A stretch of 64,000 bases of DNA, from NCBI RefSeq assembly GCF_048403405.1, contig NZ_CP183135.1. One strand, written 5' to 3'. The stretch comes from Escherichia coli. Lineage in GTDB: Bacteria; Pseudomonadota; Gammaproteobacteria; Enterobacterales; Enterobacteriaceae. A program made the position numbers and the translations under genes. The notes beneath the pieces are model-generated. The model worked only from the letters and a program-made list of their open reading frames with translations. It ran no database searches and was not told the DNA's origin. Of the stretch, positions 50,517-55,206 are shown piece after piece. Positions within the stretch are counted from its first letter, which is position 1, and every line of letters starts with the position of its first letter.

Positions 50517-52718
50517 ATGATGATAAGCAAAAAGTATACGCTTTGGGCTCTCAACCCACTGCTTCTTACCATGATGGCGCCAGCAGTCGCTCAACAAACC
50601 GATGATGAAACGTTCGTGGTGTCTGCCAACCGCAGCAATCGCACCGTAGCGGAGATGGCGCAAACCACCTGGGTTATCGAAAACGCCGAACTGGAACAGC
50701 AGATTCAGGGCGGCAAAGAGCTTAAAGACGCACTGGCTCAGCTGATCCCTGGCCTTGACGTCAGCAGCCGGAGCCGCACCAACTACGGTATGAATGTGCG
50801 TGGCCGCCCGCTGGTCGTGCTGGTTGACGGCGTGCGTCTCAACTCTTCACGTACCGACAGCCGACAACTGGACTCTATAGATCCTTTTAATATCGACCAT
50901 ATTGAAGTGATCTCCGGTGCGACGTCCCTGTACGGCGGCGGCAGTACCGGTGGCCTGATCAACATCGTGACCAAAAAAGGCCAGCCGGAAACCATGATGG
51001 AGTTTGAGGCTGGCACCAAAAGTGGCTTTAGCAGCAGTAAAGATCACGATGAACGCATTGCCGGAGCTGTCTCCGGCGGAAATGAGCATATCTCCGGACG
51101 TCTTTCCGTGGCATATCAGAAATTTGGCGGCTGGTTTGACGGTAACGGCGATGCCACCTTGCTTGATAACACCCAGACCGGCCTGCAGTACTCCGATCGG
51201 CTGGACATCATGGGAACTGGTACGCTGAACATCGATGAATCCCGGCAGCTTCAGTTGATCACACAGTACTATAAAAGCCAGGGCGACGACGATTACGGGC
51301 TTAATCTCGGGAAAGGCTTCTCTGCCATCAGAGGGACCAGCACGCCATTCGTCAGTAACGGGCTGAATTCCGACCGTATTCCCGGCACTGAGCGGCATTT
51401 GATCAGCCTGCAGTACTCTGACAGCGCTTTTCTGGGACAGGAGCTGGTCGGTCAGGTTTACTACCGCGATGAGTCGTTGCGATTCTACCCGTTCCCGACG
51501 GTAAATGCGAACAAACAGGTGACGGCTTTCTCTTCGTCACAGCAGGACACCGACCAGTACGGCATGAAACTGACTCTGAACAGCAAACCGATGGACGGCT
51601 GGCAAATCACCTGGGGGCTGGATGCTGATCATGAGCGCTTTACCTCCAACCAGATGTTCTTCGACCTGGCTCAGGCAAGCGCTTCCGGAGGGCTGAACAA
51701 CAAGAAGATTTACACCACCGGGCGCTATCCGTCGTATGACATCACCAACCTGGCGGCCTTCCTGCAATCAGGCTATGACATCAATAATCTCTTTACCCTC
51801 AACGGTGGCGTACGCTATCAGTACACTGAAAACAAGATTGATGATTTCATCGGCTACGCGCAGCAACGGCAGATTGCCGCCGGGAAGGCTACATCCGCCG
51901 ACGCCATTCCTGGCGGCTCAGTCGATTACGACAACTTCCTGTTCAACGCCGGTCTGCTGATGCACATCACCGAACGCCAGCAGGCATGGCTCAACTTCTC
52001 CCAGGGCGTGGAGCTGCCGGACCCGGGTAAATACTATGGTCGCGGCATCTATGGTGCTGCAGTGAACGGCCATCTTCCTCTAACAAAGAGTGTGAACGTC
52101 AGCGACAGCAAGCTGGAAGGCGTGAAAGTCGATTCTTATGAGCTGGGCTGGCGCTTTACTGGCAATAATCTGCGTACCCAAATCGCGGCCTACTATTCGA
52201 TTTCTGATAAGAGCGTGGTGGCGAATAAAGATCTGACCATCAGCGTGGTGGACGACAAACGCCGTATTTACGGCGTGGAAGGTGCGGTGGACTACCTGAT
52301 TCCTGATACTGACTGGAGTACCGGAGTGAACTTCAACGTGCTGAAAACTGAGTCGAAAGTGAACGGTACCTGGCAGAAATACGATGTGAAGACAGCAAGC
52401 CCATCAAAAGCGACAGCCTACATTGGCTGGGCACCGGACCCGTGGAGTCTGCGCGTGCAGAGCACCACCTCCTTTGACGTGAGCGACGCGCAGGGCTACA
52501 AGGTCGATGGCTATACCACCGTGGATCTGCTCGGCAGTTATCAGCTTCCGGTGGGTACACTCAGCTTCAGCATTGAAAACCTCTTCGACCGTGACTACAC
52601 CACTGTCTGGGGGCAGCGTGCACCACTGTACTACAGCCCGGGTTACGGCCCAGCGTCACTGTACGACTACAAAGGCAGGGGCCGAACCTTTGGTCTGAAC
52701 TACTCTGTGCTGTTCTGA
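50517..52718 (+). CDS. iutA: ferric aerobactin TonB-dependent receptor IutA
   Basis: 733 aa, signal peptide, TonB box region, C-terminal ...NYSVLF. Confidence 0.85.
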   Translation: MMISKKYTLWALNPLLLTMMAPAVAQQTDDETFVVSANRSNRTVAEMAQTTWVIENAELEQQIQGGKELKDALAQLIPGLDVSSRSRTNYGMNVRGRPLVVLVDGVRLNSSRTDSRQLDSIDPFNIDHIEVISGATSLYGGGSTGGLINIVTKKGQPETMMEFEAGTKSGFSSSKDHDERIAGAVSGGNEHISGRLSVAYQKFGGWFDGNGDATLLDNTQTGLQYSDRLDIMGTGTLNIDESRQLQLITQYYKSQGDDDYGLNLGKGFSAIRGTSTPFVSNGLNSDRIPGTERHLISLQYSDSAFLGQELVGQVYYRDESLRFYPFPTVNANKQVTAFSSSQQDTDQYGMKLTLNSKPMDGWQITWGLDADHERFTSNQMFFDLAQASASGGLNNKKIYTTGRYPSYDITNLAAFLQSGYDINNLFTLNGGVRYQYTENKIDDFIGYAQQRQIAAGKATSADAIPGGSVDYDNFLFNAGLLMHITERQQAWLNFSQGVELPDPGKYYGRGIYGAAVNGHLPLTKSVNVSDSKLEGVKVDSYELGWRFTGNNLRTQIAAYYSISDKSVVANKDLTISVVDDKRRIYGVEGAVDYLIPDTDWSTGVNFNVLKTESKVNGTWQKYDVKTASPSKATAYIGWAPDPWSLRVQSTTSFDVSDAQGYKVDGYTTVDLLGSYQLPVGTLSFSIENLFDRDYTTVWGQRAPLYYSPGYGPASLYDYKGRGRTFGLNYSVLF

Positions 52719-52790
52719 CCGGTATTCCTTTACAACAAAGGTACGCTGATATCAACATGGCCGCTGACAGCCAAGTTGATATCATATAAT

Positions 52791-52851
52791 ACACGACATA
52801 ATCTGTAGTCAGGGAGGATAGACTCTTTACTGACTACAGATTATGTCGTGT
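52791..52851. repeat. perfect 22-bp inverted repeat with 17-nt spacer just downstream of iutA; core resembles RepFIB iterons
   Basis: ACACGACATAATCTGTAGTCAG ... CTGACTACAGATTATGTCGTGT; core CTGTAGTCAG also occurs in the iterons at 33950-34000. Confidence 0.5.
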
Positions 52852-53243
52852 TCCGTGCTCATTTCCTCAAAAAAATACAAGAAAAGAATTAGTATTCTAA
52901 CAAAAAGTGAAATAAATTGTATCAAACTCCCTCTTTTAATCCTGTTGAGTAAATCAGCTTTTGCAATAGGATTGAAAGAGTGTAAGTGGAATCTCTTCCG
53001 GATACTCGTTACCACCGTGGCTAGAATATCTACGGCTGCGGGCCAGTAATAGATTAAGTGATAACAGCTGTCTGGAAATGTAGGGGCGTATCCACTAATC
53101 ATAATCATTGTGAGATAAATATTACGGGGCATTTTATAATGAATAAAATATACTCTCTAAAATATTGTCATATTACCAATACCATGAAGGTGATGCTGCC
53201 AACTTACTGATTTAGTGTATGATGGTGTTTTTGAGGTGCTCCA

Positions 53244-53519
53244 GTGGCTTCTGTTTCTATCAGCTGTCCCTCCTGTTCAGCTACTGACGGGGTGGTGCGT
53301 AACGGCAAAAGCACCGCCGGACATCAGCGCTATCTCTGCTCTCACTGCCGTAAAACATGGCAACTGCAGTTCACTTACACCGCTTCTCAACCCGGTACGC
53401 ACCAGAAAATCATTGATATGGCCATGAATGGCGTTGGATGCCGGGCAACAGCCCGCATTATGGGCGTTGGCCTCAACACGATTTTACGTCACTTAAAAAA
53501 CTCAGGCCGCAGTCGGTAA
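53244..53519 (+). CDS. insA: IS1 InsA
   Basis: 91-aa InsA ORF. Confidence 0.85.
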
Positions 53520-53540
53520 CCTCGCGCATACAGCCGGGCA

Positions 53541-53930
53541 GTGACGTCATCGTCTGCGCGGAAATGGACGAACAGTGGGGCTATGTCGCGCCAGCGCTGG
53601 CTGTTTTACGCGTATGACAGTCTCCGGAAGACGGTTGTTGCGCACGTATTCGGTGAACGCACTATGGCGACGCTGGGGCGTCTTATGAGCCTGCTGTCAC
53701 CCTTTGACGTGGTGATATGGATGACGGATGGCTGGCCGCTGTATGAATCCCGCCTGAAGGGAAAGCTGCACGTAATCAGCAAGCGATATACGCAGCGAAT
53801 TGAGCGGCATAACCTGAATCTGAGGCAGCACCTGGCACGGCTGGGACGGAAGTCGCTGTCGTTCTCAAAATCGGTGGAGCTGCATGACAAAGTCATCGGG
53901 CATTATCTGAACATAAAACACTATCAATAA
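53541..53930 (+). pseudogene. insB: IS1 InsB, N-terminal region disrupted by the 11-bp deletion
   Basis: Track ORF (129 aa) matches InsB only from ...[11 protein letters not shown] onward. Confidence 0.7.
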
Positions 53931-54183
53931 GTTGGAGTCATTACCGCGCTTCCTGGGGGGTTAATGGCTGATGACGATAAAATCATATATCGAATGATTT
54001 ATTTCTCTGCCTGTAAATATCAGGCCAGGATTTATTATGCGATTAATGATAAATATCATATCATCTGCGGGTTTCCCTCCACGCAGGTCCGGTTTCCGGC
54101 GAAACCGGAGCCTCATTTTTCGGCCTGAAGTTTTGTCGTTGACTACTTTTTACCGGCTTGTGCCCAGTTGAGAAGCCGCTGAC

Positions 54184-55206
54184 TTAGTTTCTGAATCTCC
54201 GAAGATGGCTTTCCGGAATAAAATAGATGTTGCCCCGTGCCCGTGAGCAGGCCACGTATAGCCTGTTACGGGATGATGGTGGAAGTGCTGCCAGCTTCTG
54301 TTGGATGAGGCGCATCCAGTGGTTGGCCCCCATCACGATGCAGACGTCCTGAAAGTGGTCGAGTCCTTTACTGCCCCCCCAGTTCATTGAGTGGCATCCG
54401 TAACGGTGATGTTCGCGATAGAAGAGCTTGATCATCGTGTTGTCCGCGTGCAGGGCCGCTGAACGCGCTTCATCCGTGACGATTTCAATCTGGGTGGTAT
54501 GTGTTCCATGAGCCGAAATGCGAATGTTCAGTTGTCCGGTAATGAACTCACACACTGTAGCTGAACAGCGCCATGTCCGGCTGAGCGTCTCACAATCCAC
54601 CATGATACCCGCAGCCCTGAAGCGAGCCTCGTATCGGGTTATGTCTTCATGCAGCGTAGCATTGACGTTACCGTCGCGGCTTGTGTCAAAGGTATGCTGA
54701 TAAAAATCCCCGCAGCACAGCACTGAGATTTCCGCGCGGCATAGCTCCAGCAGAAAATTAAAGTCATGGCCGGCAAAGTCCTGGACTTCATCAACGAACA
54801 ACTCATCGTAGTAACGGGCAAGTCGGGTACGGATATCTGGCAGCAACCCCCGGGCTGTCAGCAGGTGTGCGAGCCGCCGGTGATACAGCCGTCCGGCGGG
54901 ATCCTGATAATGCCGGATATTCGTGCGCGGTATTCTGGAAGGGGGCTGGTTGAAGCTCAGACCACGCGATGACAGTTGCTCCTGCAGGAAAGGGCGAAAA
55001 CAGAAACCGTGCAGAAACTCAAACCAGGTCATCACACGGATCCCGTACGGTATGTAGCCAAAGCGTCTGATAATCTGCGCCCGCAGATGTGCTTCATTAT
55101 TTACGGTGAAGGTCAGGATCAGCGTCCGCCGGTCCTCTCTTAACCGACGTATCAGCAGCGTGGTTTTACCCGAGCCGGCAACCGCAAATATCACTCTCTT
55201 ATCCAT
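54184..55206 (-). CDS. compact SF1 (UvrD-like) helicase-family protein, 340 aa
   Basis: Walker A AVAGSGKTT, motif II FVDEVQD, motif V WGGSKGLDHFQDVCIVMG, motif VI LYVACSRARG; start overlaps the upstream ATPase gene by 16 nt. Confidence 0.55.
   Translation of the reverse strand: MDKRVIFAVAGSGKTTLLIRRLREDRRTLILTFTVNNEAHLRAQIIRRFGYIPYGIRVMTWFEFLHGFCFRPFLQEQLSSRGLSFNQPPSRIPRTNIRHYQDPAGRLYHRRLAHLLTARGLLPDIRTRLARYYDELFVDEVQDFAGHDFNFLLELCRAEISVLCCGDFYQHTFDTSRDGNVNATLHEDITRYEARFRAAGIMVDCETLSRTWRCSATVCEFITGQLNIRISAHGTHTTQIEIVTDEARSAALHADNTMIKLFYREHHRYGCHSMNWGGSKGLDHFQDVCIVMGANHWMRLIQQKLAALPPSSRNRLYVACSRARGNIYFIPESHLRRFRN

Follow-up and report, generated by a model that had tools for sequence, protein, structure and literature searches.

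A perfect palindrome downstream of iutA is homologous to RepFIB control iterons and is probably a recombination scar

Introduction

What is a perfect palindrome doing between iutA, the aerobactin receptor gene, and a copy of IS1? The palindrome lies in a 64,000-nucleotide stretch of Escherichia coli contig NZ_CP183135.1 (the window, meaning the whole stretch of DNA that was analysed), which also carries a RepFIB replicon. The original prediction, drawn from the letters of the DNA, offered two kinds of answer: a remnant or satellite binding site for the RepFIB initiator RepA or, more simply, the terminator of iutA. Our literature search found no publication that mentions or describes the site.

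The upstream iterons of RepFIB are part of the origin, while the downstream iterons, E to K, control replication (PMC11983097). Carried alone on a P15A vector, the EFGHIJ block is able to displace a FIB replicon, and the upstream block is not; the mechanism proposed is Rep-mediated handcuffing of downstream iterons with origin iterons, in cis or in trans (PMC11983097). Here, E and F are labels given by the order of the first two downstream iterons and are not taken from the original RepFIB figures.

Results

The palindrome starts 73 bp after the stop codon of iutA. A repeat search returned exactly the arms and spacer originally described, two 22-nt arms with 100% complementarity around 17 nt of spacer. 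The parts of the element are listed below.

52791-52812, plus strand: left arm, ACACGACATAATCTGTAGTCAG, with an E-type RepFIB iteron, ACATAATCTGTAGTCAG, at 52796-52812; PWM score 18.4 bits
52813-52829, plus strand: spacer of 17 nt, GGAGGATAGACTCTTTA, identical at 13 of 17 positions to the E/F spacer of the E. coli RepFIB variant L005, ATAAGAGAGACTCTTTA
52830-52851, minus strand: right arm, CTGACTACAGATTATGTCGTGT, which reads ACATAATCTGTAGTCAG on the minus strand from 52846 to 52830; PWM score 23.4 bits
52796-52846, plus strand: homologue of the inverted E/F iterons of RepFIB, 51 bp long, the homology stopping at both edges

The palindrome has a GC content of 41% and folds stably. RNA of the surrounding 91 nt (52780-52870) gave −41 kcal/mol, with a z-score of −8.6 and 0 of 200 shuffles as good, and the palindrome RNA is stable from both strands (−41 and −37.8 kcal/mol). 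The DNA fold of 52786-52856 gave −24.5 kcal/mol (z = −9.3). Two other candidates were considered and rejected. The arms hold CATAAT and ATTATG, but these lie 37 nt apart and are not the contiguous hexamers of a Fur box. A coding remnant was discarded as well: the 101-aa open reading frame at 52827-53132 (minus strand), which ends in the spacer, is of low complexity and has no annotation in the RefSeq records that were inspected.

The core CTGTAGTCAG occurs without mismatch at only four sites in the window. Two of these are in the arms, at 52803 (plus strand) and 52830 (minus strand), and the other two, at 33963 (plus strand) and 33990 (minus strand), form an inverted pair just below the stop codon of RepFIB repA at 34007. 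The resident replicon is composed of the following features.

33741-33933, plus strand: further downstream (control) iterons, their role taken from PMC11983097
33956-34006, minus strand: inverted E/F iterons of the resident RepFIB, spaced by 17 nt and abutting the repA stop codon; the orphan pair beside iutA is their paralogue
34007-35026, minus strand: RepFIB repA, coding for the candidate cognate binding protein, with a CTG start and a P307-clade ribosome-binding site; RepB/RepFIB family by tblastn
35139-35242, minus strand: iterons upstream of resident repA, belonging to the origin and promoter, with a perfect DnaA box at 35352

A mechanical ORF call placed repA at 34007-34984, with a GTG start at 34984. 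We assign the true start, following PMC11983097, to the CTG at 35026, 14 codons upstream of that GTG, because 35018-35046 reproduces exactly the sequence that is reported there for the P307 clade, with its ribosome-binding site and CTG start. The resident P307-clade RepFIB RepA is apparently functional. As a separate observation, the native E/F pair (33949-34013) has a partly palindromic spacer and is predicted to form a strong hairpin in repA-sense RNA (−29 kcal/mol, z = −5.4). No obvious secondary structures were described downstream of the rep ORF in PMC11983097; the hairpin could be relevant to 3′-end stability of the rep mRNA, a topic discussed in that paper.

The shared core had been the basis of the original prediction, and comparison with the full iteron set indicates a wider likeness. 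The set comprised the 11 iterons flanking resident repA, 33741-34006 downstream and 35139-35242 upstream, with the consensus AYATAARCTGTAGTCAG. Each palindrome arm, ACATAATCTGTAGTCAG, matches this consensus at 16 of 17 positions, and both arms keep all positions that are invariant in the resident iterons (3, 4, 5, 8 and 9). Position 7 is a T in the orphan arms versus A or G in all 11 resident iterons. The T is natural in the first downstream iteron of Salmonella pSLT-type RepFIB, ACATAATCTGTAGTGAG. We also built a PWM from the 11 iterons and scanned the 64-kb window with a 15-bit threshold. The two arms were the sole hits above threshold outside the RepFIB replicon, nothing else beyond that replicon exceeded 13 bits, and shuffled windows held a mean of 0.34 hits above 15 bits. 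The scores of the genuine resident iterons range from 17.5 to 27.8 bits, which brackets both orphan arms.

The geometry of the orphan pair is also native, with a 17-nt spacer and 34 bp from centre to centre. The RepFIB replicons of E. coli, E. albertii and Salmonella all have an inverted pair, spaced by 17 nt, that begins at the base following the TGA of repA, and such an E/F-type pair was absent from the more distant pMT1/pHCM2-type and Klebsiella FIB(K)-type replicons examined. Across the 51-bp unit (17 + 17 + 17), the orphan pair is identical to that of L005 at 44 of 51 positions and to the resident pair at 41 of 51. Two genuine E. coli E/F variants are equally far apart (44/51), and E. coli and Salmonella pairs share 36–39 of 51 positions, which is lower than the identity between the orphan pair and L005. 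Similarity to the iterons therefore reaches beyond the 10-bp core, extending over both arms, the spacing and much of the spacer.

Database searches returned the same relationship. When 52787-53105 was compared by blastn with 72,556 plasmids (7.3 Gb), a 49-nt match to the RepFIB 3′ inverted pair was found (43/49, E = 3e-7); otherwise, only iutA-linked copies and IS2-like ends were returned. In CP088462.1, the matched sequence starts one base past the stop codon of an annotated RepB/RepFIB initiator gene. A local blastn search gave E = 6e-10, with homology confined to about 50 bp and neither flank RepFIB-like. A scan of 100,044 representative species genomes for two cores separated by 13–21 nt found 12 loci and no new genomic context. 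Four of the loci are RepFIB 3′ ends, and the rest have other spacings or are unrelated. With a spacing of exactly 17 nt, the pattern was found at RepFIB 3′ ends only, plus one unrelated hit. Loci in Corallococcus and in a Dehalococcoidia MAG are examples of this rest. Four Corallococcus genomes (L008, L013, L015 and L017) share an arrangement of their own, CTGTAGTCAG followed by a 13–14-nt spacer and then CTGACTACAG; this palindromic element may be conserved in the genus and unrelated to RepFIB.

Together, the 16/17 arms, the identical geometry, the matching spacer, the BLAST hits and the 44/51 identity identify the iutA palindrome, at the level of sequence, as a homologue of the first two downstream iterons of RepFIB that falls within their natural diversity. 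A chance origin is excluded by the fold z-scores, the PWM hits compared to shuffles, the BLAST E-values and the spacer similarity. The orphan pair does have peculiarities. In genuine pairs the arms always differ, E beginning ACATAA and F beginning ATATAA or AAATAA, whereas both orphan arms are E-type (ACATAA) and their perfect symmetry continues for 5 nt outside the iteron. The inner spacer of the orphan pair is without the extra palindromy present in genuine E/F pairs.

The palindrome is embedded in a patchwork between the end of iutA at 52718 and the start of IS1 at 53189.

52747-52784, plus strand: iutA 3′ hairpin, TGATATCAACATGGC / GCCAAGTTGATATCA, marking the end of the aerobactin module and not part of the iteron element
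52852-53023, no strand assigned: orphan AT-rich segment of 172 bp, 35% GC, present only in this iutA context
53024-53105, plus strand: truncated right end of an IS2-like (IS3-family) element, about 80 bp, 85–90% identical to IS2 ends
53189-53946, plus strand: IS1, beginning GGTGATGCTGCCAACTTACTGAT, with the terminal repeat GGTGATGCTGCC; IS1 is annotated in related records

Positions 52719-52786 belong to the aerobactin module. Other aerobactin loci diverge from this one at about 52787-52794, where the palindrome starts. To the right of the palindrome, the 172-bp segment had no homologue away from iutA in BLAST searches of plasmids, phages and E. coli genomes. It holds a second, imperfect inverted repeat at 52931-52980, with arms of 17 nt that are 88% complementary and a loop of 16 nt. 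Klebsiella virulence plasmids remain similar as far as the IS2-like end, and a further fragment of about 80 bp, 53106-53188, precedes IS1. The AT-rich 79 bp at 53110-53188 recur elsewhere between two IS1 copies (L030). Compared to canonical IS1, the copy in the window has an apparent internal deletion of about 10 bp around 53585; at L030, the corresponding IS1, which likewise adjoins this fragment and the UvrD helicase gene, carries a frameshift annotation. The helicase gene (54184-55206, minus strand) and a second ORF starting at 55191 (minus strand) are annotated in related plasmids, one as a UvrD helicase and the other as an AAA family ATPase, a pairing that resembles a Gabija-like two-gene defence module.

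Neither flank of the orphan pair has detectable repA similarity or a detectable rep remnant, and its surroundings give no further PWM score above 15 bits. The interval 52700-53190 holds neither a DnaA box nor direct iterons, and a satellite origin was therefore ruled out.

The region downstream of iutA was found in 1,552 plasmid records and in 953 of 5,426 complete E. coli genomes, nearly always on plasmids. Of the plasmid records searched, 835 hold an E. coli-type copy of the site. The median E. coli genome has the site in one place, always adjoining iutA. Among the 1442 iutA 3′ ends classed as plasmid-type (95% identity or more), 1439 keep the palindrome region. Within the E. coli lineage it is essentially invariant, and the plasmids of this lineage that were sampled all carry IncFIB. 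The palindrome is absent from about 1000–1,050 chromosomal iutA places in E. coli and is missing from the E. fergusonii-type aerobactin locus as well. All six distinct IS breakpoints lie on the right-hand side of the pair, a skew that does not reach significance (p of about 0.14 by our own estimate).

The iuc lineage of Klebsiella has a damaged copy. In both copies inspected (L002:3069-3150, from pAP855 of Klebsiella pneumoniae, and L021), the 6 bp AGATTA are duplicated in tandem and the right arm has a G>A substitution, and about 600 records belong to the same identity class as these two. The changes lower the stability of the hairpin and alter iteron positions 1 and 3 of the right arm. One Klebsiella iuc plasmid that keeps the site is typed IncHI1B and IncR, with no FIB. 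The Klebsiella IncFIB-typed replicon that was examined (FIB(K)-type, 58% RepA identity) has unrelated repeats. The site is therefore tolerated without a cognate RepA.

Discussion

The evidence is best explained if the palindrome is a stray copy of the RepFIB E/F iterons left at a recombination junction, where it would probably bind RepA with minor functional effect. We consider this account probable. The aerobactin module ends with its own hairpin at about 52786, and a plasmid-specific patchwork begins at about 52794. The scar is favoured by these scar-rich surroundings, by the damaged copy retained in Klebsiella plasmids, at least one of them without IncFIB, and by the 73-bp linkage to iutA. 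Of the possibilities first raised for the site, a remnant is thus the one that its context supports best.

Both arms of the orphan pair are E-type and their perfect symmetry runs 5 nt past the iteron, which suggests that hairpin-templated strand switching made the two arms alike. This process, quasipalindrome correction, is established in E. coli mutagenesis. When chromosomal loci are aligned, about two of the five symmetric nucleotides outside the iteron look as if they may stem from the aerobactin flank (TATAATAC).

RepA binding at the orphan pair is probable, since the invariant positions and the 34-bp spacing are kept and the same plasmid encodes a P307-clade RepA. The pair would then serve as two extra control iterons, acting in cis or in trans by titration or by handcuffing with origin iterons, and would depress RepFIB initiation slightly at most. 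The T at position 7 could reduce affinity for the resident RepA, and the influence of one inverted pair on an origin 18 kb away may be too small to measure. The site would persist by hitch-hiking with iutA and not by selection.

A rival possibility is that the pair is a selected satellite control site, at which bound RepA handcuffs or titrates the RepFIB origin and so lowers copy number or gives the aerobactin module incompatibility towards incoming FIB plasmids. Both half-sites are near consensus at native spacing, the downstream iteron block alone suffices to displace FIB replicons (PMC11983097), and every E. coli-lineage plasmid sampled carries IncFIB. Of the source, only the pair of about 50 bp survives, with both flanks replaced; homology that ends exactly at the edges of the pair could reflect selective retention instead of a passive scar. 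However, retention in 1439 of 1442 iutA 3′ ends fits selection and tight linkage equally well, and the 73 bp to the iutA stop codon explain it fully. Variation in the E. coli lineage is too small for a selection test and there is one independent decay event. The damaged Klebsiella copy, found even on a plasmid without IncFIB, points instead to neutral hitch-hiking, and two sites per plasmid on top of 11 resident iterons would be expected to have a small effect. We therefore regard selection for such control as unlikely. The fuller proposal, that the aerobactin module carries a working RepFIB control site where RepA handcuffs the origin, by looping in cis or in trans between copies, and thereby tunes ColV-type copy number or excludes FIB plasmids, is decidedly unlikely. 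If it were true, selection would explain both the sole survival of the 50-bp pair and its perfect symmetry.

The palindrome could also act on the transcript of iutA, as a terminator, as a 3′-stabilising mRNA hairpin or as an insulator against transcription from the IS side. Like a Rho-independent terminator, it is a stable stem-loop soon after a stop codon, here 73 nt away, and its RNA is very stable on both strands. However, no U-tract follows the stem on either strand, the terminator scan makes no call, the 17-nt spacer is unlike the short loop of an intrinsic terminator, the GC content is low at 41%, and the element is not conserved with the gene, being absent from about 1000 chromosomal aerobactin loci. 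Its sequence is already accounted for by iteron homology. It also matched no Rfam family: an E-value search of 52600-53300 for structured RNA gave only sub-threshold noise, such as miRNA-precursor-like hits. A different hairpin, at 52747-52784, is common to chromosomal aerobactin loci and the E. fergusonii plasmid, with three pairs changed on both sides so that pairing is kept (GATATC/GATATC versus GTAAAC/GTTTAC). This hairpin, also without a clear U-tract, is likely the true 3′ structure of the iutA transcript. The original suggestion that the palindrome is simply the iutA terminator is accordingly disfavoured, and we find a role of this kind very improbable.

Tyrosine-recombinase core sites have 6–8-bp spacers. 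That the palindrome is a recombination or mobile-element site (a tyrosine-recombinase core, an IS or MITE end, a REP or ERIC repeat) or a chance or convergent palindrome unrelated to RepFIB is scarcely credible: it does sit at a junction between modules in a region rich in IS scars, and RepFIB replicons do have an adjoining integrase gene, but genomes hold it at a median of one place, always beside iutA, unlike a dispersed repeat, 17 nt between 22-nt arms do not suit a tyrosine-recombinase core, no Rfam hit rose above threshold, and chance or convergence conflicts with both E-values, the shared spacer and the near-restriction of the exact core-N17-core pattern to RepFIB 3′ ends.

An orphan iteron pair would not surprise a plasmid biologist, and if inert it is merely a neat scar. 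If RepA does bind, ColV/ColBM-type virulence plasmids hold two control iterons beyond the annotated replicon, which bears on models of FIB copy number and incompatibility and on how iteron-based plasmid-curing cassettes are designed (PMC11983097). As a footprint, the pair points to a past recombination between a RepFIB 3′ end and the plasmid-type aerobactin module that E. coli ColV plasmids and Klebsiella hypervirulence plasmids have in common, and this fits the long-noted association of aerobactin with REPI/RepFIB. The analysis also corrects a likely misreading, as the 3′ structure of iutA would be the neighbouring hairpin and not the palindrome.

The closest known system is the first inverted pair of the downstream control iterons E–K of RepFIB (P307, F, pO157 and REPI of pColV-K30), which has the same 17-nt half-site, inversion, 17-nt spacer and 34-bp spacing. 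The orphan pair differs in following iutA, 18 kb from the resident replicon and with no adjoining rep gene, and in being solitary, without the further iterons G–K. Genuine E/F pairs are imperfect, whereas the orphan combines two E-type arms, 22 nt of perfect symmetry and a T at position 7. A parallel in function would be incC of mini-F RepFIA and incA of P1, where repeats that lie outside the origin bind Rep and hold initiation back by titration or handcuffing, a model given in PMC11983097 and the references cited there that may apply to the orphan pair as well. Those arrays have five to nine sites beside a rep gene and demonstrated incompatibility, whereas the orphan consists of two remote, putative sites. 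The repE operator of mini-F, built of inverted half-iterons, is likewise an inverted iteron-like arrangement that a dimeric initiator could bind. Dimers of Rep_3 initiators may bind inverted iteron-like operators. The half-sites of such operators are close together and lie over the rep promoter, whereas the orphan pair is made of full-length iterons, 34 bp from centre to centre, and has no promoter with it.
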